Below, one piece after another: positions 8,972-63,766 of a stretch of 64,000 bases of DNA (positions are counted from its first letter, which is position 1; the number at the start of each line of letters is the position of its first letter). Both the position numbers and the translations under genes were made by a program. Below the pieces are notes generated by a model. That model had not been told where the DNA came from, did no database searches, and worked only from the letters and a program-made list of their open reading frames with translations. The stretch lies in assembly GCA_963665735.1 (NCBI GenBank), contig OY762444.1, forward strand, positions 1,068,231-1,132,230. Reading direction: 5' to 3'. The stretch is from Dehalococcoidia bacterium. Lineage in GTDB: Bacteria > Chloroflexota > Dehalococcoidia > Lucifugimonadales > UBA3495.

Positions 8972-8984
8972 GCGGGTTAGTGAA

Positions 8985-10952: not shown

Positions 10953-11421
10953 CCTCCAATCAGTGACTTTGCCCAGTGGCACAGGAACATCCGCCCACGA
11001 CCAAAGAGCCGGCTAACTGGTTACTGAGTCCTGCCTCATTTATCCCGTTGTATCCCCCGTGAGCACGGAATCCCAGCCGCGGCGGAAAACGAAATACTTC
11101 ACAGGATGAGACGTTTTCAGTTACCGCTCAATAGTACCCCTAGTTTCGCCATTTTCTCGGATAAACACATCCTTTTCCAAGAACGCTACTCCGATTATGA
11201 ATATATTGCGAGCATCCTCAAAAATTGACACAACAGCATAGGACATCTGGTTCAAACCAGCACCGACAAAGTTACCCTCACAGAGGTTGAACCGATGTAT
11301 CTCTGTAACCAATTGGAAATCCGGGTTTAATAGTCAAACTCCCGGTTGCCAAGTAGTGGAAGTCGAAGACATAATAATCCACGGGGTCGAAGTCGCCTGA
11401 CCGTCAAAAAATCCTGGCCGA

Positions 11422-12286: not shown

Positions 12287-12305
12287 AGGGAATCCAAGTA
12301 CACCT

Positions 12306-13787
12306 ATGAAGAATGAATTCTTTGAGAAAATCCTCAACGCAGAAGAGGGCAGGCCATTCAACACGACCGTCTCCAGTAATGGGGATGAATTCGATACCAT
12401 CGCACAAATATCAGAAGGTGAAGAAGGCGAGCTTAACGTCACGTTGCAATCGTACATAGGCCCGTTTTTGGATTCAAACGATACCGAAACGACAATGATC
12501 CTCCCAACGCTGCCGAGATTCCGGCTCGACCCAAGCTCTTACGACATCACGAGTGACAAGACTGGAAGAAAAGTCCCCTTGTACTTGGGAGGTGGTCCAC
12601 AGGTTTTAGGTCCAGGTATTGAACACCAAAGGGTAATTGACGGCAGAAATATAAGCCTAGCAGAACCAGTAAGGGCAAAGACCCTAACCCTGTGGTACGA
12701 GGGAATCTGGGCGGAAGACTGGCGCACTAATTCAGACAAACAGCAAGTCACCATTTCCCACGAAGATTTCGCAGTTTCTAAAGTCCCTCCGCACGGCACA
12801 AACAACTTCTTCATTGAAATCACCAAGCCAACGCCAGGGAAACCTTCAATTGAATGGGACATCAGCGATACCTTTCAGGGAGTTATTGTCCGAACCGACA
12901 AGGGCAAGCCATTCGTAAAAGTCGCAATAGCTCCAGCAAACGGCCGGGATATAACGTGGGGCGATTACATAGCTAGAATCGAGGCAAAACACGAAGACCT
13001 TGAGATAAAAGACATCGTCTTACACATCTGGCGAACTGACGAATCCGAAATGGACCTAGAAGCAATCACAGCATTGGAGAAGACCATCAGCTACAGCCTA
13101 TCGTTTATGAACAGTGCTTGGTGCAGGCCAAAGGTAGCCATTGCATGGAGAGAAACTTGGTCCGACTCGGTTTGGCGCGGAACATGGGTGCCAGTATGGG
13201 GCGCATGGCAAACTACCCGGCCGACAAAGCAGGACCGGAATAAGAACTGGATGCCCATAGTGACAAACGCCGAAAAAGTGCTGGAGCAAGTGTTAAGGAA
13301 CATCAGGAAAGACCACCACCCCGTGATAGAACGGTACGTGCATAACACTATGGCTCTGGACAGAGGAGATTGGACAAGCTCAGTCACCGCATCGGTGGCT
13401 ATCCTCCAAAGGCTGGCTATAGATTCTGGTTTCAGGATTGAACGCAGGGGCCTAGAACTGTGGGATGGCATAGCCAAGTATCTGAGGTCTAAAGCAGTTG
13501 AGAGGCCTTACTACTACATAGGATGGGGAGAAGAAGCCAGGCATCTCATTGAGATGGGAGAACCTCACGACCACTTGGTGAAAGCAATAACCGAACTGCG
13601 AAACCGAGTAACAGCGCACTGGGTAAATGAACCTTCCGACAACGCAAGTTGGCTGGGACAACAAGCTGTTTACTACGTGGAATCCGCCCTGCACGCTGAA
13701 CTTGCTCCGAAAGTTCCAATGTGGGACAGAACCAGAGCATCCCACCACCCACCCAAGTCGGACCCGTCAGAGGAAATAGAGAAATAG
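12306..13787 (+). CDS. Hypothetical protein
   Basis: 493-aa ORF with non-repetitive composition. No motif recognised. Confidence 0.75.
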   Translation: MKNEFFEKILNAEEGRPFNTTVSSNGDEFDTIAQISEGEEGELNVTLQSYIGPFLDSNDTETTMILPTLPRFRLDPSSYDITSDKTGRKVPLYLGGGPQVLGPGIEHQRVIDGRNISLAEPVRAKTLTLWYEGIWAEDWRTNSDKQQVTISHEDFAVSKVPPHGTNNFFIEITKPTPGKPSIEWDISDTFQGVIVRTDKGKPFVKVAIAPANGRDITWGDYIARIEAKHEDLEIKDIVLHIWRTDESEMDLEAITALEKTISYSLSFMNSAWCRPKVAIAWRETWSDSVWRGTWVPVWGAWQTTRPTKQDRNKNWMPIVTNAEKVLEQVLRNIRKDHHPVIERYVHNTMALDRGDWTSSVTASVAILQRLAIDSGFRIERRGLELWDGIAKYLRSKAVERPYYYIGWGEEARHLIEMGEPHDHLVKAITELRNRVTAHWVNEPSDNASWLGQQAVYYVESALHAELAPKVPMWDRTRASHHPPKSDPSEEIEK

Positions 13788-13804
13788 CCAATTTGAGGAT
13801 AGCC

Positions 13805-17332: not shown

Positions 17333-18967
17333 ATGACCTACCTCACCAGAATAGTCACCGATCCCGTTCCCCAGGACGAACCCCTGGACGAAAGACAGGT
17401 TCCCAACAGCGCCGGGGGCTACTCCTACCCGGTGGACGACTTCACCCGGCTGGGCCGGTTCCTCATCCTCGGCTCCGAGGGGGGCAGCTACTACGCCGGG
17501 GAGCGGCAGCTCACCCTGGAAAACGCCGCCGCCGTCAAGCGCTGCGTGGAACGGGACGGCGAGCGGACCGTCACGGAAATCATGGACGTCATCCGCCAGG
17601 GAAGGGCTCCGAAGTCCGGCCCGCCCCTGTTCGCCCTGGCCGTCGCAACCGCCCACGGCAGCGAGGACACCCGGAAGCTGGCCCTGGAACAGGTTCCCGA
17701 CGCCGCTTCCACCGCCAGCCAGCTGATGCAGTTCGTCCAGTACGCCGACACCCTGCGGGGCTGGGGCCGGGGGCTGAGAAACGTCGTCGCCAACTGGTAC
17801 CTGGAAAAGACCCCGGAACAGGTGGCCTACCAGGCGGTCAAGTACCGCCAGCGCTACGGCTGGACCCACCGGGACCTGCTCCGCAAGTCCCACGCCGACA
17901 CTCCGGACATCAACCCCGACCTGCGGGAAGTTTTCCAGTGGGTCACTCACGGCGATCTGCCGGCGGAGCAAGGCGCTCTTGGCGTCATCCACGCCTACGA
18001 GCAGGCCAAGACCGCCGATGCGAAAACCCTGGCCGCCCTCATCCGGGAAAACCGCATGAGCTGGGAGATGGTCCCCGCCGAGATGCTCCAGGAGAAGGAG
18101 GTCTGGCAGGCCCTCTACGAGGATATGCCCCTGGTGGCCACCGTCCGCAACCTGGCAACCCTGACCCGGGTGGGCGTCATCGCCCCCATGCAGTTCGACC
18201 GCGCCGTGGAAACCATCGGCCGGATCGGCCGGGACGACCGGAGCCGGATACATCCCATCCAGGTGCTCTCGGCCCTGGCGACCTACCGCTCCGGGAAGGG
18301 GCAGCGGGGTAACAATACCTGGACGCCGGTACCCCAGGTGACGGAGGCCCTGGACGCCGCCTTCGAGCGTTCCTTCCAGCACGCTCCCCAAACGGGGAAG
18401 AGGTTCTACCTGGCGGTGGACGTCTCCGGCTCCATGAGCTACGGGCAGATAGCCGGGGTGCCGGGACTGACCCCCAGGGAAGCGGCGGCCGCCATGGCCA
18501 TGGCGATTGCCCGCCGGGAGCCCAACCATTACATCGCCGGATTCTCCCGGTCGGACGGCTCATACCGCGGGGCCATGATGGCGTCCCTGGACATCACCGC
18601 CGGGGACAGCCTGACCGACGCCATGAGGAAAACGGAAGAGATGCCCTTCGGCGGCACCGACTGCGCCCTGCCGATGATGGATGCCCTGGACAAGAAAATC
18701 CCGGCGGACTGCTTCGTTGTCCTGACCGACGGCGAGACCTGGGCCGGCAAGATCCACCCCGCCGAGGCGCTGCGGAAGTACCGCCGGGAGATGGAAATCC
18801 CAGCCAAGCTGGTGGTGGTGGGCATGGTCTCCAACGGGTTCACCATCGCCGACCCGGAGGAAGCCGGGATGCTGGACGTGGTGGGCTTCGACGCCGCCGC
18901 GCCCCGGATCATCGCCGACTTCGCCGGGAGCGACAAAAGAGACGTTGGGGAAGAAGAAATGGAATAA
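17333..18967 (+). CDS. rsr: Ro60-related protein Rsr (TROVE domain plus vWA domain)
   Basis: 544-aa ORF. The N-terminus (QVPNSAGGYSYPVDDFTRLGRFLILGSEGGSYYAGE) is typical of TROVE/Ro60. The C-terminal MIDAS motif is LAVDVSGSMS. Y-RNA-like genes follow directly. Confidence 0.9.
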   Translation: MTYLTRIVTDPVPQDEPLDERQVPNSAGGYSYPVDDFTRLGRFLILGSEGGSYYAGERQLTLENAAAVKRCVERDGERTVTEIMDVIRQGRAPKSGPPLFALAVATAHGSEDTRKLALEQVPDAASTASQLMQFVQYADTLRGWGRGLRNVVANWYLEKTPEQVAYQAVKYRQRYGWTHRDLLRKSHADTPDINPDLREVFQWVTHGDLPAEQGALGVIHAYEQAKTADAKTLAALIRENRMSWEMVPAEMLQEKEVWQALYEDMPLVATVRNLATLTRVGVIAPMQFDRAVETIGRIGRDDRSRIHPIQVLSALATYRSGKGQRGNNTWTPVPQVTEALDAAFERSFQHAPQTGKRFYLAVDVSGSMSYGQIAGVPGLTPREAAAAMAMAIARREPNHYIAGFSRSDGSYRGAMMASLDITAGDSLTDAMRKTEEMPFGGTDCALPMMDALDKKIPADCFVVLTDGETWAGKIHPAEALRKYRREMEIPAKLVVVGMVSNGFTIADPEEAGMLDVVGFDAAAPRIIADFAGSDKRDVGEEEME

Positions 18968-19682: not shown

Positions 19683-20147
19683 ATGAAGGATAAAAGCAAA
19701 ATCCCGACGCTTTTCCGGGAACTGGACCTGAACTTCAGGAACATCACTGCCATCCCCGTCATCGCCCTCGTCTACTACTACATCGCAGTGCAGGCCAGGG
19801 AACTGGCCGGGGGAGACGTTCCCGAAAACCCGGTAATGGCATCCGTCACGCTGCTCCTCGCCTCCCTGCATAACCACAGCCTCACCCGGAACGTCCTGAT
19901 GGACAAGATCTTCACCGTCATTGCCCTCACCGCCACGACACTGGCCCTGTTCTTCCTGGGCGCCGCTTTCCCCTTCGCCATGGCCGAGGGAAAACCGGTA
20001 GTTCTCGCAATCATGGCCCTCTCCCTCGGAATGACCGTGTGGAACCTGGTCCTGGCGGTGAATGAAAGGCGGAATCCGTCCGTTCCAAAACAACCGAAAG
20101 AGGAAAACCATGCAACGGAACCGGGAAGCGTTTCTCCATCATCCTGA
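19683..20147 (+). CDS. Hypothetical membrane protein
   Basis: 154-aa ORF after GAGGAGGG, with several hydrophobic helices (ITAIPVIALVYYYIAV, LALFFLGAAFPFAMA, VVLAIMALSLGMTVWNLVLAV). Confidence 0.6.
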   Translation: MKDKSKIPTLFRELDLNFRNITAIPVIALVYYYIAVQARELAGGDVPENPVMASVTLLLASLHNHSLTRNVLMDKIFTVIALTATTLALFFLGAAFPFAMAEGKPVVLAIMALSLGMTVWNLVLAVNERRNPSVPKQPKEENHATEPGSVSPSS

Positions 20148-20784
20148 ACCCCGCGAAACTCCCAACCCCCAAGCCATGGCCGCTGCGGAGGCCGCCGCCG
20201 AAGCCCTCCGCCGGGCTGCGCTGACCCAGACCCGGGAGATGATAACCGAGGAGGCCCGGGCGTCGGCTTACATCGAGAGCGAGTACGACGAGGAAGAAAT
20301 CGCCCGCCACGCCGGGGCCTTGGAGTCCTACCTGCTGGAACCCAAGGGCCAGGACGAGGAGAGCCTGCTCCTGGACCTGCACCGGCGGATGATGCGAAAC
20401 CAGGCCCACGCCCAACCGGGCCGGTACCGCACCTTCGGAGTCACCATCGGGGACTGGAGGCCGCCGGGAGCCGGACTGGTTCCGGCGCTGATGCGAGAAT
20501 TTCACGACGGGGGATGGCGGAGAGCCGGCGGCCAGGACGGGGATGCCGCAGCCCGGGCCATCCGGGCCCACGTCCACTTCGAGACCGTCCACCCCTTCGC
20601 CGACGGCAACGGAAGAACCGGCCGGGCATTGCTGCAGCGGATGCTGGGAACCCGCATCCCCATCAGCCCCTTCATCCTGCGGGAACGGTGGGAATACTAC
20701 CGGCTGTTCGAGGAAGGCGACTGGTCCGATTGGGTCTTGTGGCTGAGCCGGGGCATCGTGGAACAGGCCGGAAGTAACCGCTAG
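20110..20784 (+). CDS. Fic/DOC family protein (AMPylase-type active site)
   Basis: Canonical Fic motif HPFADGNGRTGRALL. The start is ambiguous between 20062 and 20110; 20110 was chosen to limit overlap with the upstream ORF. Confidence 0.85.
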   Translation: MQRNREAFLHHPEPRETPNPQAMAAAEAAAEALRRAALTQTREMITEEARASAYIESEYDEEEIARHAGALESYLLEPKGQDEESLLLDLHRRMMRNQAHAQPGRYRTFGVTIGDWRPPGAGLVPALMREFHDGGWRRAGGQDGDAAARAIRAHVHFETVHPFADGNGRTGRALLQRMLGTRIPISPFILRERWEYYRLFEEGDWSDWVLWLSRGIVEQAGSNR

Positions 20785-25893: not shown

Positions 25894-26652
25894 CGAGTTC
25901 CAAGGGGCCCCTCGCGAGGGATACTTCCAACCCGAGCAACCTCAAGGCAGAAAGGTAGTACACCTACGAGGCGTACTCCAAGGACGGGTGCAACAGCGCA
26001 GACGCAATAGCGGAAATCACGTTCAGCAACATGAGCGAGGCAAATTTCGGGGTAGCCACGGTGAGCAAATCGGGTGGCGACGGCCGTGAAGCTGCACAGG
26101 AGTTCACCATACGCTGAAACAGCGGCAGGTGCACCCTCTCGAGTGTCACAATCCAGACCATCGCGAAGATCGGAATGCCAACCCACTCCGTCGTGACGCT
26201 AAACGCATCCGGCAATACTCCCGGAGCCACTTACCACCCCTAGCGGAAGCAACCAAGACACCGAGCGAAGCTATTCCTGCTCCAGCTTGGACTGCAACCT
26301 GGCCTCAGACACCACGTACATCATCGTGATTAAGGTCAGCTGCTCCACCCGACCAAGGAACCGCTACTTGATCAACACGACGCAATTGGACAATAAGAAG
26401 CTTGTGCCATCCGATTATGGGTAGTCCATCCACAACGGGAGTTTCACGCTCCAGATATCAGTTGCCTCATCAGCCCCACCGCGGCGTACAAGGTAACGGT
26501 GGCCGCCGCGCCGAAGTAGTAGCAGACCACCGGAGGACGCGAGCCGAGTTGAGGTCCGACCCGATTAGCAGATTCTCTCTTGACATCAAGGGATGACCTA
26601 GTTAACCTTTGAGCCGCTCTCGCGCTAAGCCGTATCAACCAGAGGCTATTAC

Positions 26653-29154
26653 ATGGCAAACACCACAGTTAGCCCGACCACGCAGCTGTTTTACTCTTAT
26701 TGCCATAAAGATTCCTTCCACAGGGTGTCCATGGAGACATCTCTAGCTCTATTGAAGGAAAAGGGACACTTACATCAATGGTCTGATGCGGAAATACTCC
26801 CGGGACGGAGCATTTCATCAGAAATTAGGGAACAGATGGACCAAGCGGACATCATGGTCTTCCTCTTTAGCCCCGACTTCTTAAGCTCCGAAGAGTGCAT
26901 GAAGGAGTGGAGGTACGCCAAGCTGTTATCAGACAATGGGAAAAACCTGTTCCGAATCCCGATTATAGTGCGTCCTTGCGCTTGGAAAGATGTCCTACAG
27001 GGCGATGACGTGTTGGCCCTGCCAAACGATGGAAAACCGGTCTCGCAATTCGATGACTACGACGTAGCTTGGCAACAAGTTTACGAAGGTATCAAGAAAG
27101 TAGTAAACACACTAAGGATGACCTTTCGCCCAAAAGAAGAATCCTTAGAAGAGATCGACAGAACCGAATTCATGTCGCAGGAGCACTTGAAGCTGAAAGA
27201 TCTGTTTGTTTTCCTTAGATTGAACCGCGAGGACCCTCTGACCAACGAAAAACAACTACGAGACACCACCGTAACTAGAATAGAGGAACTTCTCGACAAC
27301 AAATATGTTGTCATTCATGGACCGGAGAAATCTGGGAAAACTGCACTCGCCAGGTATGTATACCTTTCTCTCATTGAAGCAACTGATCCAGTACTTCTGC
27401 TGGACCCGAGTCAAGGACGAGGACGATTGACCGAGGCTCTCATAAGGAGAACGTACGAAGCACAATTTCGTGGTGATTACTCATTATGGATTCAGCAGAG
27501 CAAGAAGACACTTATAGTAGACGGCCTAACCCCAGAGTCCCGGATTCCTGACTTCCTTGAAGCGTCGAAGGAAATTTTTGAGCGCATCATATTAACCACT
27601 TCTTCCGATATTTATTATGCCTTCTTTAGAGATGACGCTCGCTTTGCTGAATTCATACCTATGAAGATACAGCCCCTTTCACGAGTCCAACAAGAGGAGC
27701 TCATCAGGAAACGCTTGGCACTGTTGCAGACCAACACTCAAATCACAGACGGATTCGTTGATCAGGTGGAAAACAGAGTCAACTCGGTCATAATCTCAGA
27801 CAGACTGCTACCCAGGTTTCCATTCTATGTACTGTCGATCTTACAAACTTATGAAGCGTATATGCCAACTAGTCTTTCGGTGACCTCCTACGGACACTGC
27901 TACCAAGCATTGATTTTCGCCAGTCTCCTCCTCTCTGGAATCTCCGAGACAGACGACGACGTGAACGCCTGCTTCAACTTTTCTGAACAGTTGGCATTCG
28001 CAACCTACCAGCACCGCAATACTGCTCAGAACGAAACCTTTGACTTTTCGGCGTTCGTAGATGATTACAAAAGGCGATTTTTCATCCGAGAAGCCATCAT
28101 CAACCGGCTCAAGAGTAGACCATACGGCCTGATTGACGAGACGGGCAACTTCCGGACAAATTTCATGTATTACTACTTCTTGGGGAAGTTTCTCGCCGGA
28201 AACAGCAAGCTGGGACCTCCTGTAATCGAAGAAATGTGCATCAACAGCCACAGGGAGGCAAATTACCTAACGCTCCTGTTCGCTATCCATCACACCACAG
28301 ATAATTCTATCATTGAGGACTTATTGCTCCGCACAATGGACACTTTGGGGTCAATCTCTCCAGCTACTCTAGAACAAGACGAGACTCGAAGATTCGGAGA
28401 GGTGATAACGCAACTTCCAGAAGATGTTCTATCCAACAAAGGAGTACGACAGGCCAGAATTGAGGAGCGGCATCTCAGAGACACGATGGAGGAACAACGG
28501 GCAAACGCTCAGGAGAACGGAGAAGAAGAATCGCCAAATGGAGATGAATTCTTGGACAGCCCGGAGACACTGAATGGGATTTACAAGATACTGAAGAATA
28601 ACAAGATTATGGGGCAAGTACTCCGGAACCGGCACGGGAACCTAGACAAATCGACCATTGAGGAGATAATCCAAACGATAGCGGATAGTGGGCTACGGCT
28701 CGTGAACCTAGTGCTCGCAAACGAGCAAGATATAGCTCGATGGGCCTCCTACGTGAACCAAAGGCATAACGACTGGGACGCAGAAAAAATCAAGGAGGTG
28801 CTTCGGTTTCTGTCGTTCGTCTGGACAATGGTGAACATAGAACAGGTTGTGGAAGCATTCAACATCCCAGAAATCAGAGAAGCAATCGAGTCAGTAGTAA
28901 ACAAAAACGCGACGCCAGCGTACGACCTAATAGGATACTTCAGCCGACTCGACAGCGCCACCGAACTGACAAATCGAGAGCGAGACTGTCTCGAATCTCT
29001 CTTGAAAGAACACGACGACCTGTTCGTACAGAGAGTACTATCGATAAGAACTCAGTACTACATGAACACGCATCGTAGCAGGGCACCCATAGAACAAGCT
29101 ATCTGCTCCCTACTGGACATCAGATACAGACCTCGCCTGCTACCATCTCCTTAG
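26653..29154 (+). CDS. TIR domain fused to a P-loop NTPase (STAND-like), with a long helical C-terminal region
   Basis: 833-aa ORF. TIR signature LFYSYCHKDS...ADIMVFLFSPDFLSSEECMKEW. Walker A HGPEKSGKT, and a possible Walker B TLIVDGL. The gene is markedly more A/T-rich than its surroundings. Confidence 0.85.
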   Translation: MANTTVSPTTQLFYSYCHKDSFHRVSMETSLALLKEKGHLHQWSDAEILPGRSISSEIREQMDQADIMVFLFSPDFLSSEECMKEWRYAKLLSDNGKNLFRIPIIVRPCAWKDVLQGDDVLALPNDGKPVSQFDDYDVAWQQVYEGIKKVVNTLRMTFRPKEESLEEIDRTEFMSQEHLKLKDLFVFLRLNREDPLTNEKQLRDTTVTRIEELLDNKYVVIHGPEKSGKTALARYVYLSLIEATDPVLLLDPSQGRGRLTEALIRRTYEAQFRGDYSLWIQQSKKTLIVDGLTPESRIPDFLEASKEIFERIILTTSSDIYYAFFRDDARFAEFIPMKIQPLSRVQQEELIRKRLALLQTNTQITDGFVDQVENRVNSVIISDRLLPRFPFYVLSILQTYEAYMPTSLSVTSYGHCYQALIFASLLLSGISETDDDVNACFNFSEQLAFATYQHRNTAQNETFDFSAFVDDYKRRFFIREAIINRLKSRPYGLIDETGNFRTNFMYYYFLGKFLAGNSKLGPPVIEEMCINSHREANYLTLLFAIHHTTDNSIIEDLLLRTMDTLGSISPATLEQDETRRFGEVITQLPEDVLSNKGVRQARIEERHLRDTMEEQRANAQENGEEESPNGDEFLDSPETLNGIYKILKNNKIMGQVLRNRHGNLDKSTIEEIIQTIADSGLRLVNLVLANEQDIARWASYVNQRHNDWDAEKIKEVLRFLSFVWTMVNIEQVVEAFNIPEIREAIESVVNKNATPAYDLIGYFSRLDSATELTNRERDCLESLLKEHDDLFVQRVLSIRTQYYMNTHRSRAPIEQAICSLLDIRYRPRLLPSP

Positions 29155-29738
29155 CCAAATTGACAGGTCGTAGGTGGCCTCGCCAAGACAGTTCAGAATA
29201 GACGGCCAACTCACGCGGTTGGTAAGACAACAGGCGGCATGATGCCTCTCTCTTGGCGCGCAGGGCTGTTGTTGGGGAATCCATCCCCAATTGCAACGTG
29301 CTTTTCAGTTCTCCTCTGAACCCGCGATGGGTATACTGCTATCTTAGAGCCAGTGCTGTGGAGATCGGACTTGATACGGACAATATCAAGGATAGGGAGC
29401 TATGAGAAAACTATACCGGACTCTGGGAAACGACATCTAGCGAAATCCGCAATCTACGGACCCAGTACGCCTCACCAAGACACAGCAAAACTGCCACAGT
29501 CCGCAGTCAGCCTTGACCAATATCCTGCCACTGCAACATAAGTCATGGCAGTAATCAGTACAATCTTGTGAGACTTTAGCACTACTATGCAACACGTCGC
29601 ACGATGAACGTAATTCACCAAACACGGCGATGTTGGAGCCATACGAGCCGAGGTTTTTGATTTCGTAATCGTCTCAAGTTGTCAACATTCCCAACCAAGC
29701 GAAAACCGAGCCGCACAACCTCTGACCACCAGCCCAGA

Positions 29739-38581: not shown

Positions 38582-38883
38582 TGGAATACTTCATGATCCT
38601 GGCGGCGGGATTCGCCGCCGGGGTGATCTGCTGCTTGGTCGACGACCGGCTGGCAAACCGGGTCAACGGGGAGATTCACCGGATGACCGCCGCCCTTCTG
38701 GTAGCCGTGGTAGTAACCACCCTGATGATGGAATTTCCCCTCAGGAAAGTTGACCCCGGACTCGGTGATATGCCCATCTACGTCCTGGGCCTGGCCGCCG
38801 GGTACGCCTTGAAAATCCTGCACAACCGGCGACGGAACGGCAGCCGCGAAGATACTCACCACCAGGGAGGAGATAAACCTTGA
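38581..38883 (+). CDS. Small membrane protein
   Basis: The internal ATG overlaps the upstream TGA by 1 nt. 100 aa, hydrophobic. Confidence 0.55.
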   Translation: MEYFMILAAGFAAGVICCLVDDRLANRVNGEIHRMTAALLVAVVVTTLMMEFPLRKVDPGLGDMPIYVLGLAAGYALKILHNRRRNGSREDTHHQGGDKP

Positions 38884-40361
38884 ACACCGAAGAATTCCTG
38901 CAAGCCATTGAACCCGGAGAGAAAAAGTGGAACCAACAGGGGAAGGAGAACTTCCCCTTCCGTTTCCTGTACGCCGCCGCCCGTCTCATGGAAGGCGTCA
39001 TCATGGAAACCGCCCACGACTTCACCGAATACAACCGGGACCACCTGGAACGGGACTCCATAGCCCTGGCCAACGTGGTTGCCGGGCGGGTCGCCGACTG
39101 CCGGAATCCGGGGAGTTTTGAACCGGCTGTGAAGTGGGAGATGAGACGGCTCCGGGACCTCCACGGCGGCGACGTCTTCGAAGATTGGCCCTTCGGAACC
39201 CAGCTGTTCGTCCTCGCTGCCGCAATCATCGCCGGCACGGTGTACCGGAAGAGCCGGCAGTACGACCGGTACGACGAGCAGGACCTGCGGCTGGACGGAG
39301 TGCAGCTGGTGGCCCTGATGGCGCTGAACCTGGAGGCCGGGGAGAAGGGAGAACCCGCGGCGGCGAAGAAGAAGTGCAAACCGGCAGACGGGTGCGGGAG
39401 GAACCGGAAGCCCGACCGCCAGGTCGCGGTCAGCCACCGGAACTATTCCCGGATGCAGCGGTTCGCGGTGCCCATGGACGACGACTTCAACAGCACGTTG
39501 TCCAAGATAATGGACTTGGCCGAGGCCGGACACCGCCGGGATGAGGCGAAGGACGGCGGCCCGGAGATGTTCTACGACCTGATGAACCGGCTCACGGGAA
39601 GGACCGACCGGAGGAAGCCGTCGGAGCCGGGGGCTTTTCCCCGGGAGGCCCCGGTCCCGGAAATCCTCTTCCGGGAGATTCCCGACACGGGAGCGCCGAA
39701 GCTGGAAGTGATCACCAAGGAGAACCGGATCCCGGAGATTTCCGCACCGGAAGTTGAAATACCGGAGGAGTCTCCCGGTGACGACCACACCGCCAGCTTT
39801 TCCACTGAGGAACCCGCCGTGGAAGAACAGCCCGCCATGGCAGCAGAACCGGACGTGGGACAGCCCGTCGTGGAAGAACCCGGGGACGTGAACCAACCGG
39901 ACGTGGAACAGCCCGCCACGGCAGCAGAACCCACCGTGGAACAGCCCACCGTGGCAGAAGAACCGGACGTGGAACAGCCCACCGTGGAACAGCCCACCGT
40001 GGCAGAAAAACCCCGGCGGAGGAACAACCCGCCCCCGGAACCCTCCACCCCCCAGAACGACTACCGGCTTCCCATCATGGAGGCCCTCCGGGAACGGGGC
40101 GGCCGGGCTCCCGCCGGCGCCGTCATCGAACTGGTCCACCAGAGAATGGAACAAAGCCTGCATCCCGCCGACGAGGCCAAACTGGGGAACGGACGCCCCC
40201 GGTGGAAGAAGATGGTCGAGTGGGCCGGCAAGGAACTGGTGACGGAAGGAAAACTCAGCGACAAGTCCCCCCGGGGAACCTGGGAACTCACCGCGGCGGG
40301 GTTCAGCGAAGTGGGAGGCTCCCCGGAGCCGGAGTACCAGCTCCGGGAATCCCTGCGGTAG
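38880..40361 (+). CDS. Hypothetical protein with an acidic Pro-rich tandem-repeat region and a C-terminal Mrr_N-like winged helix
   Basis: 493-aa ORF. The C-terminus YRLPIMEALRERGGRAPAGAVIELV...RPRWKKMVEWAGKELVTEGKLSDKSPRGTWELTAAG resembles the N-terminal wHTH of Mrr-type restriction proteins. Confidence 0.7.
   Translation: MNTEEFLQAIEPGEKKWNQQGKENFPFRFLYAAARLMEGVIMETAHDFTEYNRDHLERDSIALANVVAGRVADCRNPGSFEPAVKWEMRRLRDLHGGDVFEDWPFGTQLFVLAAAIIAGTVYRKSRQYDRYDEQDLRLDGVQLVALMALNLEAGEKGEPAAAKKKCKPADGCGRNRKPDRQVAVSHRNYSRMQRFAVPMDDDFNSTLSKIMDLAEAGHRRDEAKDGGPEMFYDLMNRLTGRTDRRKPSEPGAFPREAPVPEILFREIPDTGAPKLEVITKENRIPEISAPEVEIPEESPGDDHTASFSTEEPAVEEQPAMAAEPDVGQPVVEEPGDVNQPDVEQPATAAEPTVEQPTVAEEPDVEQPTVEQPTVAEKPRRRNNPPPEPSTPQNDYRLPIMEALRERGGRAPAGAVIELVHQRMEQSLHPADEAKLGNGRPRWKKMVEWAGKELVTEGKLSDKSPRGTWELTAAGFSEVGGSPEPEYQLRESLR
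39819..40013 (+). repeat. In-frame 15/18-nt tandem repeats
   Basis: Units of the type GTGGAACAGCCCACC and GTGGCAGAAGAACCGGAC encode VEQPT / VAEEPD-type repeats. Confidence 0.7.
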
Positions 40362-43678: not shown

Positions 43679-43779
43679 CCGGGCCCGTCTCAAGGGATTG
43701 GCCAACATTGTACGGGGTCGCACGTCACCCATCTCCGGCCAATGAACACCGGAAAACGACCGTCGGCAAAGGAGGACCC

Positions 43780-44871
43780 ATGAACCACCTGATCCAAGAC
43801 CTATCCGCCCTGGCGGACCGGATAACCGCCGCGACGGAGCGTCTTTGACCTCCCCGCCAGGGAAAACACCATCGCCCGGATGGAATCCGAAGCCGCCCGC
43901 CCCGGTTACTGGGACGACCCTTGCCAGGCCCAGGCCCGGACCAAGCAACTCGAACGCCTGAAGGAAACTGCAACCATCTGGAACAACCTGCGTTCCCAAT
44001 CCCGGGAACTCCTGGAACTGGCCCGGATGGCCCTGGAAGAAGAGGATGCTACCCTGGACTCCGAACTGGCCGCCCGGGGCGAATCCCTGGCCGCCGACCT
44101 GGAACGGGAGGAGATCAACCTGGCCCTCTCGGGTACCACGGACGACCGCCCCGCCATCCTGTCCATCCAGGCCGGGACCGGCGGCGCCGACGCCCACGAC
44201 TGGGCCGGAATGCTGCTACGGATGTACCTGCTGTGGGCCGAGGCCAATGACCGCAGCGTCGAGACCCTGGACCTCGCACCCGGGGACAGGGGAGGAATCC
44301 GAAATGCCTCTCTGGAGATCGGCGGCAGGTTCGCCCACGGGTTCCTCCGAGCCGAGCGCGGCGTCCACCGACTGGTCCGAATCTCACCCTACAGCCCGAA
44401 AGGCGCCCGCCACACCTCCTTCGCCCGGGTGGAAGTCATCCCCGCCGCGCCGGAGGAAGAGTCCGAAATCGAAATCCGATCCGAGGACCTGAAGATGGAC
44501 CTTTTCCGCTCCGGGGGCCCCGGCGGCCAGAACGTCCAGAAGGTGAACTCCGCCGTCCGTCTGACCCACCTGCCCACCGGCGTCATCGCCGTTTGCCGGA
44601 CCGAGCGCTCCCAATACCAGAACCGGGAGTACGCCCTGCGGGTTCTGCGGGCCCGCCTGGAGGAATGTCGAAGAATCCGCCAGGCAGCGGAACGGGCCGA
44701 ACTGAAGGGTGAAACGCCCCCGCCGAATGGGGACGGCAGATCCGCAGCTACTTCCTGCATCCCCGGCAAATGGTGAAAGACCACCGAACCGGGTTCAGCA
44801 GCGCCAACGCCCAGGACGTGCTGGACGGGAACATCCAGGACTTCATTCACGCGTTTCTCACCAACCAATGA
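43780..44871 (+). CDS. prfB: Peptide chain release factor 2 (programmed +1 frameshift, plus an unexpected -1 frame break near the 3' end)
   Basis: ATG at 43780 after AAAGGAGGA. Frame 1 gives MNHLIQDLSALADRITAATERL and then TGA. The +1 frame continues with DLPARENTIARMESEAARPGYWDDP...GGPGGQNVQ (GGQ motif). The canonical C-terminus EWGRQIRSYFLHPRQMVKDHRTG...DFIHAFLTNQ-stop (ending at 44871) is reached only by a further shift at the C5 run 44717-44721. Confidence 0.85.
43836..43849 (+). promoter_or_regulatory. prfB programmed +1 ribosomal frameshift site
   Basis: GGAG-CGT-CTT-TGA-C. An SD-like GGAG lies 3 nt upstream of the classic CUU UGA C slippery/stop context. Confidence 0.85.
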
Positions 44872-44927
44872 TTGAAAGGCGGTTTCGACCCCAACCCGGG
44901 ACGCCGGCAATTGAACACCGGAGAAGC

Positions 44928-45215
44928 ATGACGAAAGTAATCAGGGTATCCGACCAGACTTGGGACAGAATAACAAAGACGGTGGGTGAAGACGGCACCG
45001 CCGACGAAAGGATCAGCCGCCTGCTGGACCTGGCGGGCCGGCCGCCCGCGCCCCAATTCGACTACCGCAAAGACCTGCTGTCCCAGAGGTATGCCCTCCA
45101 GGACATGATCAACCGGTGCCCCGAGGAAGCGGTCATCGACCGGGGCAGCCTGCAGTACGCGCTGCAAAAGGTCAACGAGAAAATCGCCCGGCTGGACCGG
45201 GAATCATGCCCCTGA
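44928..45215 (+). CDS. Hypothetical protein
   Basis: Internal ATG. 95 aa. Confidence 0.5.
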   Translation: MTKVIRVSDQTWDRITKTVGEDGTADERISRLLDLAGRPPAPQFDYRKDLLSQRYALQDMINRCPEEAVIDRGSLQYALQKVNEKIARLDRESCP

Positions 45216-45586
45216 CCCCCTACCCCTGCCCCCGGTGCGACCGCCGGTTCGAGAGCCGCCGGGGCCTGGACCAGCACATCCGGCAGGGCCACCACGCCTG
45301 CCCCGACTGCCGGCCAGAGGCCGAGCGCTGCCCCCACCACGACCAGGACCCGTACACCGAGTACCTGAAGGTGTACTACCACCAAAGGAACCGGAGACCC
45401 GTAACCCTGGAAGAAGCCAGGGTGAACGAAAAGGGGTGGATCATCGGCTGGATCGTCAACGGCAGGACCGCCGACCCCACCTACGATATTCTCATCATCG
45501 ACCCGGGTTTGGTGAAGAAGACCGAGACTTGGGTTCTGAACCTGTTCTTCGGCGACCTGGAGAAGAAGAACGAATCGCAGAAATGA
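45206..45586 (+). CDS. Small protein with an N-terminal C2H2-type zinc finger
   Basis: YPCPRCDRRFESRRGLDQHIRQGH (C-x2-C-x12-H-x4-H). Overlaps the upstream gene end. Confidence 0.6.
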   Translation: MPLTPYPCPRCDRRFESRRGLDQHIRQGHHACPDCRPEAERCPHHDQDPYTEYLKVYYHQRNRRPVTLEEARVNEKGWIIGWIVNGRTADPTYDILIIDPGLVKKTETWVLNLFFGDLEKKNESQK

Positions 45587-45876: not shown

Positions 45877-47253
45877 ATGCTCACCATATCCACCACCCAC
45901 CAGCCCGCCACCGACCTGGGATACCTGCTGCACAAGCACCCCGACCGAGTCCAGGAGTTCCCCCTGGCCTTCGGCAAGGCCCGGGTCCACTACCCCCAGG
46001 CCTCCGAGGAAAGCTGCCAGGCCGTCCTCACCCTGGACGTCGACCCGGTGCGTCTCACCCCCAAGGGCAACCGGGACGCCCCCTCCCACCTGCTCCAGGA
46101 CTACGTCAACGACCGCCCCTACGTCGCCGCCAGCCACCTGGCCGTGGCCCTGAACAACGTCTACCGCACCGCCATGACCGGCCGCTGCGACGCCAAGCCG
46201 GAACTGGCCAACACCCCCATCCCGCTGCGAGCGGAGATAAAGTCCCTGCCGGCCCGCCGCGGGGAAGAAATACCCCGCCGCATCCTGGAACCCCTGGGAT
46301 ACCAGGTGGAGATGGAACCCCTGCCCCTGGACCCGGATTTCCCCATGTGGGGCGACGCCGGGATTCACAACCTGGTCGTGGAATCGAAGTCCCACACCCT
46401 GGCCGAGCTGCTCCGTCACCTCTACGTCCTGCTCCCCGTACTGGACAACAAGAAGCACTACTGGATCGGCAGGGACGAGATGGAGAAGCTGGAACGCCAC
46501 GGGGAGGGCTGGCTGGACCAACACCCGGAACGGGAGATGATCAGCAAACGCTACCTGGGATTCCGGGACAGTCTCACCAGGGAGTTCCTGGCCCGGCACC
46601 CCGGGGACGAAGAGACCCCCGCCGACGAAGAGACCTTGGAAGATGGAACCGTCGGCGAGAAGCGGGAATCCCTGCACCAGCTGAGAATCCGGGCCATCAT
46701 TGAACAATTGAAACGCGCCGGCGCCCACAGCGTCCTGGACCTGGGCTGCGGCGAGGGACGGCTCATCGAGGCCCTGCTGAAAGAGGACGCGTTCCGGAAA
46801 ATCACCGGCCTGGAGGTCTCCCAGGGAACCATCGGACGCGCTCACCGGAGAATCGGCAAGGAGGAACGGGTGACCCTGCTCCACGGCTCCCTGCTGTTCC
46901 CCGACCCCCGGCTGGATGGCCACGACGCCGCCGTTCTGATGGAGGTGGTCGAGCACGTGGACCCAGAGAAGCTGGACCTGGTGGAAATGAACGTATTCGG
47001 GCAGGCCAAACCCCGCGCCGTCATCGCCACCACCCCCAACCGGGAGTGGAACGCCGTCATACCCAACATGGAGACCCGGTTCCGCCACCGGGACCACCGC
47101 TTCGAGTGGGACCGGGAGGAGTTCCGGGAATGGGCCGAAGGAGTCGCCGCAAGGAACGGCTACGCGGCGGAAATCCTGCCGGTGGGCGAGGAGGACCCGG
47201 AACACGGGCCGCCGACGCAAATGGCGGTATTCACGAAAAAGGAGACCGCATGA
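45877..47253 (+). CDS. hen1: Bacterial Hen1 RNA 3'-terminal 2'-O-methyltransferase
   Basis: 458 aa. N-terminus MLTISTTHQPATDLGYLLHKHPDR is typical of bacterial Hen1. SAM motif VLDLGCGEGRLI. C-terminal HRDHRFEWDREEFREW. Confidence 0.88.
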   Translation: MLTISTTHQPATDLGYLLHKHPDRVQEFPLAFGKARVHYPQASEESCQAVLTLDVDPVRLTPKGNRDAPSHLLQDYVNDRPYVAASHLAVALNNVYRTAMTGRCDAKPELANTPIPLRAEIKSLPARRGEEIPRRILEPLGYQVEMEPLPLDPDFPMWGDAGIHNLVVESKSHTLAELLRHLYVLLPVLDNKKHYWIGRDEMEKLERHGEGWLDQHPEREMISKRYLGFRDSLTREFLARHPGDEETPADEETLEDGTVGEKRESLHQLRIRAIIEQLKRAGAHSVLDLGCGEGRLIEALLKEDAFRKITGLEVSQGTIGRAHRRIGKEERVTLLHGSLLFPDPRLDGHDAAVLMEVVEHVDPEKLDLVEMNVFGQAKPRAVIATTPNREWNAVIPNMETRFRHRDHRFEWDREEFREWAEGVAARNGYAAEILPVGEEDPEHGPPTQMAVFTKKETA

Positions 47254-47645
47254 CTCAACGGACGGAAGGCAACGCGGTGATAACACGGCACCTGAACCTG
47301 CTCCTGTCCCGGTTGGCCAAGGCCCGGTCCAACCTGATGGAATCGGCGGAGCGGTACAGCCCCAACAACGTGGAGCTTCACTGCCGGCACTTCGATCCCT
47401 GGCTCTTTTCCAAGGAGTTCGAGCAATGGGCCGAAATACACCGGAAGCCCCGGGAAGAATTCAACCGGACGAATCTCTACAACGCCCTGGCATGGGTCAG
47501 GATGAAGACCGGAATGGACACCGAGATGCCGACCCCGGGCGGAATGGCATTGGCCGCCATGTACTGCAACGACCCCACCGACCTGTACGTCGACCCCATC
47601 AGGGCATTGACCCTGGACCTATGCGAAGAATCCGGCAACCGGTAA
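47250..47645 (+). CDS. Hypothetical protein translationally coupled to hen1
   Basis: ATGA overlap with the hen1 stop. 131 aa. No motif recognised. Confidence 0.6.
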   Translation: MTQRTEGNAVITRHLNLLLSRLAKARSNLMESAERYSPNNVELHCRHFDPWLFSKEFEQWAEIHRKPREEFNRTNLYNALAWVRMKTGMDTEMPTPGGMALAAMYCNDPTDLYVDPIRALTLDLCEESGNR

Positions 47646-47667: not shown

Positions 47668-50217
47668 GTGAAAGAAAACATGGAAATACGAATCCCCGAA
47701 TTCTGCCTGGCGCTGATGATGGGACCCACCGGGGCCGGCAAGAGCCACTTCGCCCAAAAGTGGTTCAACACCACCGAGATTCTCTCCTCGGACAACTGCC
47801 GCGCCCTGGTCTCCGACGACCCCGCCAACCGGGAGTGCAGCGACGACGCCTTCGCCGTCCTCCACGCCGTCCTGGACAAGCGTCTGAAGCGCCGCCGCCT
47901 CACCCTGGTGGACGCCACCAACCTCAGGCAGGAGGACCGGAAGACCCTCCAGGAAATCGCCCGCGAACACGACTGCCAGTCGGTCATCTTCGCCATCGAC
48001 ACCCCCGTAAAAGTCTGCCTGGAACGGAACGCCGCCCGGGAGGGCAGGAAATCCCCGGAACGGGTGGTCCAGGCCCACTGCCGCCGGATGAGGATGTCCC
48101 TCCGGGACACCAAAAAGGAACGGTCCCGGGTGTACCAGCTGAAACCCCAGGAGGCCAAAGACGCCGTCATCCGGCGGGTGAAGATGCGGATCGACCTCCG
48201 GGATCAGCCCGGCCCCTTCGACCTCATCGGCGACGTCCACGGCTGCCAAGAGGAACTCGTGCAACTCCTGGACAAGCTGGGCTACCGGGACGCGGACGGA
48301 ACCTTCATCCACCCGGAGGAGCGACGCGCCGTGTTCCTGGGCGACCTGGTGGACCGGGGCCCGGCCAGCGACCAAGTCCTGGAGACCGCCATGAACATGG
48401 TGGAAGCCGGCTCCGCCCTGGCCGTCATGGGCAACCACGACGACAAGCTGGAACGCAAGCTCAAGGGCAACCCGGTGGAGGTCAGCCACGGGCTGGGACG
48501 GACCCTGGAACAGCTGGACAAGAGGGACGAAGAATTCAAAGAGAGGGTGAAGAAATTCCTGCACCGGCTGCCCGAACAGTACCTCCTGGACGAGGGACGG
48601 CTGGCGGTGGCCCACGCCGGCATCCTGGAGAAGTACCAAGGCCGGACCAGCCGACGGGTGCGGGACTTCTGCCTCTACGGGCAGACCACCGGCGAGAGCG
48701 ACGAGTACGGCCTGCCGGTGCGCCAGGACTGGGCCCGGGAATACACCGGCGAGACCCTGGTGGCCTACGGCCACGTCGCCGTGGACGAGGCCCGCTGGGT
48801 GGGCAACACCATCTGCCTGGACACCGGCTGCGTCTTCGGCGGCAGCCTCACCGCCCTGCGCTACCCCGAAAGGGAACTGGTCTCCGTGCCGGCCCGGGAG
48901 ACTTACTACGAAGGCATCAAGCCCTGGGAGAAGACGGCGGAGGAGGCCCGGGAGCGGGCGACGGAACGATTCGAGCCGGGCCACATCCCCCTGGCCGGGA
49001 TAACCGGCGACCTGAAGATAGACACCGCCACCCACGGCCCGGTGGAAGTTCCCGCCAACCGGGTCAACCACGCGTTGGAACCCATGAGCCGGTACGCGGT
49101 GGACCCCAGGTGGCTCATCTACCTGCCCCCCACCATATCTCCCACCCAGACTTCCCGGTTGCCTGGAATGATGGAACATCCCGACGAGGCCTTCCACCAG
49201 TACCGGGAAGACGGCGTGGCCAAGGTGATCTGCCAGGAGAAACACATGGGTTCCCGGGGCATCGTCATCGTGGGCCGCAGCCCGGAGGTCATCCGGGAGA
49301 AGTTCGGAGTGGATTCTCCCGCCGGGGGCGTATGCTACACCCGCACCGGACGCCGGTTTTTCCCGCCGGAGTTGGAAAAGAAATTCCTGGACCGCACCCG
49401 CCAAGCCCTGTATGCCGCCGGGCTGTGGGATGAGCTCGACACCGGTTGGATGTTGCTGGACTGCGAGATCATGCCCTGGAGCCTGAAGGCCCGGGGGCTG
49501 CTGCAGCAGACCTACGCGCCGGTGGCCGCCGCGGCGCTGAACACCCTGGAAGCCGCCCGGGAATCCCTGGAGCAGGCCCAAGCCCGGGGCATGGACGTGG
49601 AGTCCGCCCTGGAGGACAACGGGAAACGGCTGGATGCGGTGCGGGGATACCGGCAGGCCTACCGCGAGTACTGCTGGGAAACTTCCGAAGAACTTGAAGG
49701 CGTCAGGGTGGCGCCCTTCATGGCCCTGGCCGGGGAGCAGGGAGTCAACCACCGGGACCACCTCTGGCAGATGAGCGTGGGGAGCCGGCTGGCCCGCGTG
49801 GACCCCAAGCTGTTCCAGGCCACCTGCCACGTGGTTGTGGAGACGGGGAACGAGGCCCAGGAAATGGCCGCCCTGGAATGGTGGCAGGAGATCACCTGCC
49901 GGGGCGGTGAGGGAATGGTGGTCAAACCGTTGGAACTCCTGCCCCGGGGCAGCCGGGACCGGATACAGCCGGCGGTGAAGGTCCGGGGCAAGGAGTACCT
50001 GCGGCTGATCTACGGCCCCGAGTACGACCTGCCCGGCAACCTGGAGCGTATGCGGGGCCGGAACCTGCGGGCGCGGCGGGAGAACGCCGTGAAGGAGTTC
50101 GCCCTGGGACTGGAGGGAATCCGGCGGTTCACCGCTGGGGAGTCTCCCGCCCGGGTGTACCAGTGCGCCATGGGAGTGGCCGGGCTGGAATCGGAACCCG
50201 GCGACCCCCGGCTGTAG
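47668..50217 (+). CDS. pnkp: Polynucleotide kinase-phosphatase with a C-terminal ligase domain (Pnkp)
   Basis: 849 aa. Kinase P-loop GPTGAGKSHF. Metallophosphatase motifs GDVHGC, GDLVDRGP and GNHD. Ligase-type lysine motif QEKHMGSRG. Confidence 0.9.
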   Translation: MKENMEIRIPEFCLALMMGPTGAGKSHFAQKWFNTTEILSSDNCRALVSDDPANRECSDDAFAVLHAVLDKRLKRRRLTLVDATNLRQEDRKTLQEIAREHDCQSVIFAIDTPVKVCLERNAAREGRKSPERVVQAHCRRMRMSLRDTKKERSRVYQLKPQEAKDAVIRRVKMRIDLRDQPGPFDLIGDVHGCQEELVQLLDKLGYRDADGTFIHPEERRAVFLGDLVDRGPASDQVLETAMNMVEAGSALAVMGNHDDKLERKLKGNPVEVSHGLGRTLEQLDKRDEEFKERVKKFLHRLPEQYLLDEGRLAVAHAGILEKYQGRTSRRVRDFCLYGQTTGESDEYGLPVRQDWAREYTGETLVAYGHVAVDEARWVGNTICLDTGCVFGGSLTALRYPERELVSVPARETYYEGIKPWEKTAEEARERATERFEPGHIPLAGITGDLKIDTATHGPVEVPANRVNHALEPMSRYAVDPRWLIYLPPTISPTQTSRLPGMMEHPDEAFHQYREDGVAKVICQEKHMGSRGIVIVGRSPEVIREKFGVDSPAGGVCYTRTGRRFFPPELEKKFLDRTRQALYAAGLWDELDTGWMLLDCEIMPWSLKARGLLQQTYAPVAAAALNTLEAARESLEQAQARGMDVESALEDNGKRLDAVRGYRQAYREYCWETSEELEGVRVAPFMALAGEQGVNHRDHLWQMSVGSRLARVDPKLFQATCHVVVETGNEAQEMAALEWWQEITCRGGEGMVVKPLELLPRGSRDRIQPAVKVRGKEYLRLIYGPEYDLPGNLERMRGRNLRARRENAVKEFALGLEGIRRFTAGESPARVYQCAMGVAGLESEPGDPRL

Positions 50218-52080: not shown

Positions 52081-52115
52081 CCAGGTACCAGTCACCGGCC
52101 ACCGTCCACCGAACA
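52081..52115. repeat. Heptanucleotide tandem repeat, locus e (divergent unit)
   Basis: CCAGGTA CCAGTCA CCGGCCA CCGTCCA CCGAACA, directly upstream of the 52128 gene. Confidence 0.45.
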
Positions 52116-52127
52116 CCGGAGGAGAGA

Positions 52128-60394: not shown

Positions 60395-60477
60395 AGAAGC
60401 CAGATTGACCCCTACCGTAAACGTCGAAGCGACGGCAGACGACAATGAGGACATCCAATGGAAGAAGGAAATAACGA

Positions 60478-61548
60478 ATGACAGACACATTCCTATTGGG
60501 CGCAGGCTTCTCCAAAGCAGTGTGTAGCGCCATGCCAACCATGAAAGAGTTGTACGACCTCCTAGGCGCCTCCTTGAACAACCCAGACGGCCCAACCAGG
60601 GAAGCTTACGAGTACGCCTCCGGCAATACGGAGACGCTGCTCTCCTATTACGCAATTCCCAGTCCCCAAGATGACCGAATTCAACTGTTAAAGAAGAAAC
60701 AAGTTACGGCTTACTTGGAAAACAAGATAGGACAGATAATAAGTGACAAGGAGGAGGAGGGGGCAAAGCTGGGATTGAACCCTCTGGCGGGACGGCTATT
60801 GTCAAAGTGGCACGATGAGAAAACCCATGTGCTAACTACCAATTACGACACTCTCATCGAGAGAATAGCAGACCAAGGAATATACTCAGCACTAGGGGGC
60901 AAGAAGGAACAGTTACATTACCAGATTATTTATCCCATACCCATAAGCACTGCCCAATCCAGATACGGAACAGCTGTACTAGGCCCAACGCGCCACGAAA
61001 CTTTCACAATATACAAACTGCACGGATCAACCACATGGTTCAAGTCAGACACGGAGGTTACCTTCGACCCCATCTATGGAGTCTCATACGACAGCACTAC
61101 TAACGTCGAAGAGAACCAACTAGTCGTCGATAAAAGAAGATTTATAGTACCTCCCGTCTATGATAAATCATCTCTGCTCAGCCACGACACCATAAGGAGT
61201 TTATGGCGATTGGCGAGAGATACCGCAATACGACCCGCTAACCGAATATACGTTATCGGCTATTCACTGCCCGAAACGGACACAGCCATGCACACCCTCC
61301 TGTGGGAAGGAAGTCAATCTAACGGCGGGGAGAAAGAAATCTACGTTGTGGATCTAAACCCTGAAACCGCCAAGAGATACAGACAGACCCTAGGGAAATA
61401 CTACCAAGTCAATGAAAAATACACTGGTGGAGACGACCCCTTCGGCAGATTCATAGAAGAGTACGTGGGAGAGGAATACGAAGAAATCGAAGCAACTGAG
61501 CAAAACAAAAAATCAGGAGCAATGCTGGTTCCTTTACCCAAGGCATAG
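60478..61548 (+). CDS. SIR2-like (SIR2_2 family) protein
   Basis: 356 aa. Motifs FLLGAGFSKAV...MPTMKEL, YKLHGSTTWF and YVIGYSLPETD. Visibly lower GC than flanking DNA. Confidence 0.8.
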   Translation: MTDTFLLGAGFSKAVCSAMPTMKELYDLLGASLNNPDGPTREAYEYASGNTETLLSYYAIPSPQDDRIQLLKKKQVTAYLENKIGQIISDKEEEGAKLGLNPLAGRLLSKWHDEKTHVLTTNYDTLIERIADQGIYSALGGKKEQLHYQIIYPIPISTAQSRYGTAVLGPTRHETFTIYKLHGSTTWFKSDTEVTFDPIYGVSYDSTTNVEENQLVVDKRRFIVPPVYDKSSLLSHDTIRSLWRLARDTAIRPANRIYVIGYSLPETDTAMHTLLWEGSQSNGGEKEIYVVDLNPETAKRYRQTLGKYYQVNEKYTGGDDPFGRFIEEYVGEEYEEIEATEQNKKSGAMLVPLPKA

Positions 61549-61845
61549 GCATGAACGGAATTTATCAACCGCAATTGTCTACCACTGAAACCAAATAGCA
61601 CAGAACAGGAGATGGGCGTAGTAGCCCCCGGTCATCTCCGAATACTAACGATGAGCTGAGAAACTCGAGTCCGATTGGACTTTGCTCGATGGTGACCTCC
61701 CAGTTGGAAAGGTTACCAACCCGTTGCCTTGAAACCAACAAATAGAAACACCAAGGACACCTAGGCTACTCCCAGGTGACTTGGAACATGGCCAGCCGGT
61801 AGAACGACCCTATGTGGCGATCCGACGTGGCCGCTGAGAAGAAAA

Positions 61846-63193: not shown

Positions 63194-63766
63194 ATGACCT
63201 CCCCACACCAGCCGACCTTCACCCTATTGGCCGGCCCCTCCGGCGTGGGCAAGGACGCCGTCCTGGATGCGTTGCAAAAGCGGCTGCCCCAACTCCACGT
63301 CCCCCTTACCGTCACCACCCGGCCCATGCGCCCCGGGGAGAAGGACGGCCGGGAGTACCGGTTCGTGGATGACGAAACATTCCTGGCGATGGAACGGGAA
63401 AAAAGATTCCTGGAAACGGCCCTAGTCCACGGGTGCTTCTACGGCACCCCCAAGGATGAGGTAGTCAAACCCCTGGCCGAGGGGCGGAATGTTATCCTCA
63501 AAGTGGACGTGCAGGGCGCGGAACAGGTGAAGCGGCTCATGCCCCAAGCCCTGGGCGTGTTCCTGATGCCCGAGGGAGAAGAACAGCTGCGCCGGCGGCT
63601 GGAACTCCGGGGCCTGGAACCCGCCGACCTGGAGACCCGGCTCGGGAACGCCCGTTGGGAGATGGAGCGGGGAAAGGACTTCGAACACGTCCTGGTCAAC
63701 CGGGAAGGAAAGCTGGAGGAAACCGTTGCCCTGGTGGAACGGGTGATCCTGGGAAAGCAAGTTTGA
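63194..63766 (+). CDS. gmk: Guanylate kinase
   Basis: 190 aa. Motifs GPSGVGKDAV, TTRPMRPGEKDGREYRFV and KVDVQGA. Confidence 0.88.
   Translation: MTSPHQPTFTLLAGPSGVGKDAVLDALQKRLPQLHVPLTVTTRPMRPGEKDGREYRFVDDETFLAMEREKRFLETALVHGCFYGTPKDEVVKPLAEGRNVILKVDVQGAEQVKRLMPQALGVFLMPEGEEQLRRRLELRGLEPADLETRLGNARWEMERGKDFEHVLVNREGKLEETVALVERVILGKQV

Follow-up and report, generated by a model that had tools for sequence, protein, structure and literature searches.

The prfB gene in the window, by which we mean the whole stretch of 64,000 nucleotides analyzed here, lacks, as assembled, a single base in the short linker that leads into the conserved W-G-x-Q-I-R-S-Y segment of release factor 2 (RF2). We infer, with a probability of a little under one half (≈0.48), that the missing base is an assembly or consensus error in or beside a run of five cytosines (C5). 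The true state would then be C6, reading ...GETPPAEWGRQIRSY..., and the cell would make an intact RF2 of 363 aa. A genuine, recent mutation is also quite possible, and the assembled sequence alone does not separate it from a miscall.

Layout and identity of the gene

The locus is an ordinary bacterial class-I release factor 2 gene. When one base is added, it encodes a 363-aa protein that scores 413.2 bits on the NCBIfam model TIGR00020 (prfB), for which the curated cut-off is 370 bits, and that covers positions 2–352 of the 353-position profile. This repaired protein carries the Pfam domains PF03462 and PF00472 (PCRF and RF-1) together with the RHTSF and GGQ motifs, and it aligned over its whole length to solved RF2 structures. 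On other models it scored 231 and 208 bits (RF1), 87.5 bits (PrfH) and 39.5 bits (ArfB). Identity as PrfH was ruled out, since the cut-off for that model is 166.65 bits and domain 1 is present. The product as encoded is 331 aa long and consists of domains 1–3 followed by a 17-residue out-of-frame tail; it reaches 333.7 bits on TIGR00020 over profile positions 2–303 of 353, which is below the cut-off.

The gene lies on the + strand and starts with an ATG at 43780, 4 nt downstream of a Shine-Dalgarno (SD) sequence, AAAGGAGG (43768–43775), read directly from the DNA. The first open reading frame, ORF1 (43780–43848), has 22 codons (43780–43845; translation MNHLIQDLSALADRITAATERL) and ends with an in-frame UGA at 43846–43848. 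It aligns with the N-terminal end of three relatives annotated at full length (P0004, P0007 and P0044). The original prediction had placed a classic +1 frameshift site, GGAG-CGT-CTT-TGA-C, at 43836–43849, and this site is indeed present: GGAGCGTCTTTGAC comprises an SD-like GGAG, a 3-nt CGU spacer and CUU UGA C, and the frame that begins at 43847 reads as RF2. CTT_TGA_C is the consensus for prfB +1 sites (PMC3711429), and the string GGAGCGTCTTTGACCTC is identical in three Dehalococcoidia orthologue loci (L001, L002 and L003). The sole real recoding signal of the gene is this canonical autoregulatory +1 site, as predicted from its sequence.

The body of RF2 follows in the +1 frame from 43847 to 44724 and comprises domains 1–3, up to the linker preceding domain 4, as delineated by the PCRF and RF-1 Pfam domains and by tblastn. 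As encoded, this frame continues to a UGA at 44774–44776, and the resemblance to RF2 is lost from ≈44725. The conserved C-terminus (EWGRQIRSYFLHPRQMVKDHRTG...TNQ), located by tblastn at 44725–44871 with its stop codon at 44869–44871, is shifted by −1 relative to the body and thereby shares the frame of ORF1. Its 48 codons are out of frame with the body, and no uninterrupted frame leads from the +1 shift through domain 4.

The tripeptide SPY (44384–44392, within RISPYSPKGARHTSF) lies opposite SPF, the stop-codon recognition motif, of B. subtilis RF2, and the catalytic GGQ motif (44522–44530, within GGPGGQNVQKVNSAV) sits in the context GPGGQNVQK. Both had been read correctly in the original prediction, but the oddity that it implied for SPY and for the GGQ context was not borne out. 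The 120 closest homologues all come from Chloroflexota/Dehalococcoidia-type MAGs; SPY is the majority form among them (63 sequences, compared to 56 with SPF), and GPGGQNVQK occurs in 118. SPY is also reported from nearly one third of bacteria and is viewed as functionally neutral (Duarte et al., PMC3472500). Judging from these alignments, both SPY and GPGGQNVQK are normal for the Chloroflexota/Dehalococcoidia clade. Private to the window gene are the serine immediately following SPY, where 117 of the 120 homologues have aspartate, and the G of SGGPGGQ, which replaces a serine before GPGGQ.

The gene resembles prfB of the E. coli and B. subtilis type in its 22-codon ORF1, SD-like element, 3-nt spacer and CUU UGA C, and the protein resembles RF2 of that type in its PCRF and RF-1 domains, SP[F/Y], RHTSF and GGQ motifs and end-to-end structure alignment. 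It differs in the base missing before domain 4, in having SPY for SPF and NVQK rather than HVN after GGQ (clade-wide), and in its location in a defence and RNA-repair island instead of a housekeeping neighbourhood.

The break in the reading frame

Alignment of relatives to the window by tblastn gave three collinear segments, in frames 1, 2 and 1; for P0004, these correspond to 43780–43860, 43844–44713 and 44716–44868, respectively. The query residues are contiguous over the break, running from 301 to 302 in P0002 and from 310 to 312 in P0004. As originally proposed, the C-terminus is in the −1 frame and the switch falls within 44713–44727: the C-terminal frame contains a TGA at 44710–44712, and homology in the body frame is over by 44725. 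This interval holds the C5 run (44717–44721) and the sole candidate slip motif, C_CCG (44719–44722). The relatives read ...LRGERVAAEWGNQIRSY... across the break and the repaired window gene ...LKGETPPAEWGRQIRSY..., and the alignment is ungapped (GERVAAEWG in the relatives, GETPPAEWG in the repaired protein). Because the relatives show no gap there, exactly one nucleotide is missing. The proposal that an extra C would restore the frame thus holds as to the number of bases, but the site is not bound to C5, since an addition at any of the positions 44713–44724 gives the same length.

The sequence downstream of the break is intact. Identity to P0002 is 64.9% over 43838–44725, before the break, and 66.0% over 44725–44865, after it (tblastn). 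All clade-invariant C-terminal residues are kept, GC3 is 0.83, and no second lesion or excess divergence was seen 3′ of the break. The break is also unique to the window gene: it is found in none of the 119 other homologues, all of which keep the G[EDQ]x5[WF]G spacing with an in-frame C-terminus, and the DNA of loci L001–L004 and L006 shows an unbroken frame at this position. Independent translation of the C-terminal piece was considered and rejected; the first ATG is at 44770, within the conserved segment.

Relatives and genomic surroundings

The window RF2 is 54–63% identical to 15 relatives, which are mutually 64–97% identical, and 54–65% identical across P0002–P0120. It carries 27 private substitutions at positions that are invariant in all 15, including the change from D to S right after SPY and that from S to G before GPGGQ, and the repaired protein scores 29–37 bits below the relatives on the prfB model. 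In the GTDB representative set, no locus exceeded 63% identity, and IMG/VR yielded no RF2 relative; the phage and plasmid collections yielded only distant RF2 genes, at ≤43% identity. The RF2 genes of Dehalococcoidia/Chloroflexota MAGs (P0002–P0120; L001–L004 and L022) share with the window gene the frameshift string, GPGGQNVQK, the frequent SPY, and the length and spacing at the break, whereas the second frame break is found in the window gene alone. The five closest relatives examined (L001–L004 and L022) also have a common thrS–prfB–ribBA-ribE-ribD(-dcd) synteny, while no thrS or ribBA-ribE-ribD neighbourhood is present in the window. (L022 and L023 are different strains, with 97–98% identity.) An unusually divergent RF2 outside its usual neighbourhood suggests an inserted accessory copy. 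A deep-branching host could be another source of both the divergence and the missing synteny; the more distant Chloroflexia locus L006 lacks thrS–prfB–ribBA synteny as well.

The gene is located in an island of ≈60 kb, unnoticed in the original prediction, with genes for an SNF2/PLD helicase, an Eco57I-type methylase, Ro60, Fic, TIR-STAND, radical SAM and Mrr_N proteins, RNA ligase, Hen1, Pnkp and SIR2. Around RF2, the gene order is RNA ligase (PF09414, 42739–43395), a 92-aa ORF, RF2, two small ORFs, Hen1 (45877–47253), a coupled 131-aa ORF (47250–47645) and Pnkp (47668–50217), the last a kinase-phosphatase-ligase. Defence-type genes are found at 181–7427, 20062–20784, 26629–29154, 38877–40361 and 60475–61548; the types represented are an SNF2 helicase with PLD nuclease beside an Eco57I/MmeI-type methylase, Fic, a TIR-STAND NTPase (ThsB-like / PDC-S60), an Mrr_N-domain protein and a SIR2-like protein. 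PADLOC gave no match for RF2 or its immediate neighbours. A Ro60/TROVE and vWA (Rsr-like) gene at 17333–18967 is 65% identical to the Ro60 of island L024, and similar islands, in which Ro60, Hen1 and Pnkp occur with arrayed small ORFans, are found in other genomes at L024 and L025, without RF2. Rfam and tRNA scans of the window revealed no Y-RNA or other Rfam family at the gathering threshold, and no tRNAs.

Between 30000 and 60400, the island consists of about 45 small, co-directional and translationally coupled genes, nearly all without a Pfam match. A few belong to PHROG families of unknown function (phrog_1987, phrog_6452 and phrog_1229), one is a DUF6197 protein, and one, at 45206–45586, encodes a C2H2 zinc-finger protein of 126 aa. 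The array has the look of a phage or mobile element, but no integrase, capsid or tRNA gene was found in it. The large ORFs at 7499–8680, 8973–10952 and 12279–13787 had no Pfam match. GC3 is ≈0.55 at 7230–13800, 26600–29200 and 60475–61550, compared to 0.75–0.87 elsewhere in the window, which suggests that the low-GC3 segments are DNA acquired separately within the island. Elsewhere, the host chromosome carries a second Hen1 at 82% identity (P0122). The guanylate-kinase-like gene of the window (63194–63763) likewise has two further copies there, at 86% and 79% (P0242 and P0243). Parts of the island are therefore multi-copy in the genome, and the “guanylate kinase” probably belongs to the island and is not the housekeeping gmk.

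The RF2 gene is bracketed by a 22-nt imperfect direct repeat, with 86% identity between the copies. The left copy, CCGGCCAATGAACACCGGAAAA, is at 43735–43756 (+), and the right copy, CCGGCAATTGAACACCGGAGAA, at 44904–44925 (+), ends 2 nt before the next ATG (44928). The 22-nt pattern has three matches in the window, the third at 52102–52123, compared to 0.01 expected. A leader motif, (T/C)GAACACCGGAG, recurs directly 5′ of several + strand genes; it has eight matches, namely these three and five looser sites, compared to 1.46 expected. The bracketing repeats may mark the insertion of an RF2 cassette into a pre-existing intergenic leader.

PrfH is an RF2 paralogue coupled to the RNA ligase RtcB in the rescue and repair of damaged ribosomes (PMC9304027; PMC1586002). 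The window locus resembles that system in that a gene of the RF family adjoins RNA-repair enzymes (PF09414 ligase, Hen1 and Pnkp), and by analogy, it is conceivable, if unlikely, that an intact accessory RF2 was recruited to the Ro60–RNA ligase–Hen1–Pnkp island and works in the manner of PrfH and RtcB. It differs in several respects, however. The window gene has a +1 site and encodes RF2 at full length, domain 1 included; it is accompanied by Pnkp, Hen1 and an Rnl-type ligase, with no RtcB found among the ORFs scanned, and the association of RF2 with the island is absent from the two related islands (L024 and L025).

Origin of the missing base

Several observations argue for an assembly or consensus error. 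The repaired protein passes the prfB model and the as-encoded product fails it, the tblastn alignment is contiguous, and identity is undiminished after the break; the strong ribosome-binding site and the +1 site are both intact. Of 43 genes in the window, 26 end in UGA, which makes it the main stop codon there; the host must therefore have RF2 activity, and either the gene is really intact or another copy exists. The exact truncated ORF was found only once in the protein collection, and singleton, homology-validated frameshifts in prokaryotic genomes are generally put down to sequencing errors (PMC3711429). Contigs with related genes carry long-read assembler names, and the source assembly appears to be a long-read, single-contig assembly of 3.92 Mb.

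Against an error, every window gene with a family match is intact (for example, the SNF2/PLD helicase of 1176 aa and the methylase of 1128 aa), and no further frame breaks were found in the 64-kb window by codon-bias frame track, junction inspection or Pfam coverage. The other frame changes inspected on the + strand are normal coupled gene junctions, with either an ATGA overlap or a ribosome-binding site and start codon. The window contains 96 C5, 17 C6, 50 G5 and 7 G6 runs, and because the other genes are intact despite so many C and G runs, it does not come from an error-riddled assembly. One indel in 64 kb fits a real mutation as well as an occasional consensus error of long-read sequencing.

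The explanation next in probability to an assembly error, and one that we consider quite possible, is that a single base was truly, and very recently, deleted from an accessory prfB carried by the island. The gene would then be a young pseudogene, with a housekeeping RF2 elsewhere, probably in a thrS–prfB–ribBA locus, and with the loss of domain 4 tolerated. The gene may be a dispensable accessory copy, as suggested by the island, the lack of synteny and the divergence, and this would make a real inactivating mutation quite plausible. Defence, RNA-repair and ORFan genes surround the gene over ≈60 kb, the thrS–prfB–ribBA synteny of its relatives is missing, and the protein is divergent; the 22-nt direct repeat on both sides suggests insertion, the related Ro60–Hen1–Pnkp islands L024 and L025 do without RF2, and the window is otherwise free of frame breaks. 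On the other hand, the gene has no second lesion or extra divergence after the break, and the absent synteny could, as noted above, reflect a deep-branching host. A second host RF2 did not appear among the top 120 RF2 hits. This carries little weight, since such a copy could rank below hundreds of clade members, and it says nothing about divergent or fragmentary copies.

We consider it very unlikely that a second programmed event restores the frame, either by a −1 slip of tRNA-Pro on C_CCG (44719–44722) or by insertion of a C by RNA polymerase at C5. The DNA would then truly be C5 and the gene in use, and, just as improbably, RF2 synthesis would require both a +1 and a −1 event. The recoded or repaired junction would read ...GETPPAEWGR... 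(LKGETPPAEWGR), and the unshifted, out-of-frame tail ...GETPPPNGDGR.... The Z_ZZN tetramer C_CCG is in phase, with a partial SD-like GGUGA 6 nt upstream and a modest hairpin possible 6 nt downstream, and the frame downstream of the break is perfectly preserved. However, the break is shared by none of the 119 homologues, whereas programmed shifts are conserved among orthologues, and a manually inspected prfB set held no second frameshift (PMC3711429). The body codons ACG CCC CCG place the heptamer G_CCC_CCG in phase, which does not correspond to X_XXZ_ZZN, and only the tetramer C_CCG fits. In E. coli, C_CCG gave 1.8–3.6 times the background of 0.064%, even with the strong IS3 pseudoknot, and was among the weakest motifs tested (PMC4066793). 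Folds of the downstream 90–100 nt (without pseudoknots; the minimum-free-energy hairpin starts 6 nt downstream) were no more stable than shuffled sequences, with z-scores of −0.45 and −0.42, and the potential hairpin draws on conserved codons for Trp-Gly and His-Pro, which are also present in the relatives. Motifs for transcriptional slippage are usually homopolymers of ≥8 nt, and usually of A or T (PMC3711429); the C5 run is far shorter. A +1 slippage of tRNA-Pro on the C run was rejected, as it gives the wrong frame.

The site resembles those of dnaX and IS-element −1 frameshifting in that a −1 change is required and a Z_ZZN tetramer is in phase, but differs in lacking the X_XXZ_ZZN heptamer, conservation among orthologues and, in folds without pseudoknots, a significant stimulatory structure. 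By these sequence comparisons, the second break is unlikely to be programmed. The original prediction had offered the same three alternatives (decay or truncation, a homopolymer error and, far less likely, recoding), and its ranking agrees with the absence of the break from all 119 homologues, the weak slip motif, the fold z-scores of about −0.4 and the short C5 run.

Domains 2 and 4 of RF2 form one codon-reading unit, and the loss of domain 4 should destroy the folding of that unit. Least probable of all, and hardly to be expected, is that the truncated 331-aa product is a functional form, a specialized factor that acts alongside the RNA-repair enzymes encoded nearby: RNA ligase, Hen1 and Pnkp are adjacent, Ro60 lies 25 kb upstream, and the RF2 paralogue PrfH, which acts with an RNA ligase, provides a precedent (PMC9304027), but the out-of-frame C-terminal sequence is kept at all clade-invariant positions and with full codon bias, which would be unexpected if it were untranslated, the product scores below the prfB cut-off, and the related islands have no RF2.

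As it stands, the finding matters little, as the +1 site, SPY and the GGQ context either have been described before or are usual in the lineage. An artefact or a young pseudogene is the likeliest account of the break, which serves chiefly for annotation and as a quality flag for the assembly. If the DNA is correct and full-length RF2 is made, this would be the first double-recoded prfB. If the host has another prfB and the island copy is intact and expressed, the gene would represent an accessory release factor that moves together with RNA-repair genes, which may parallel PrfH and RtcB.
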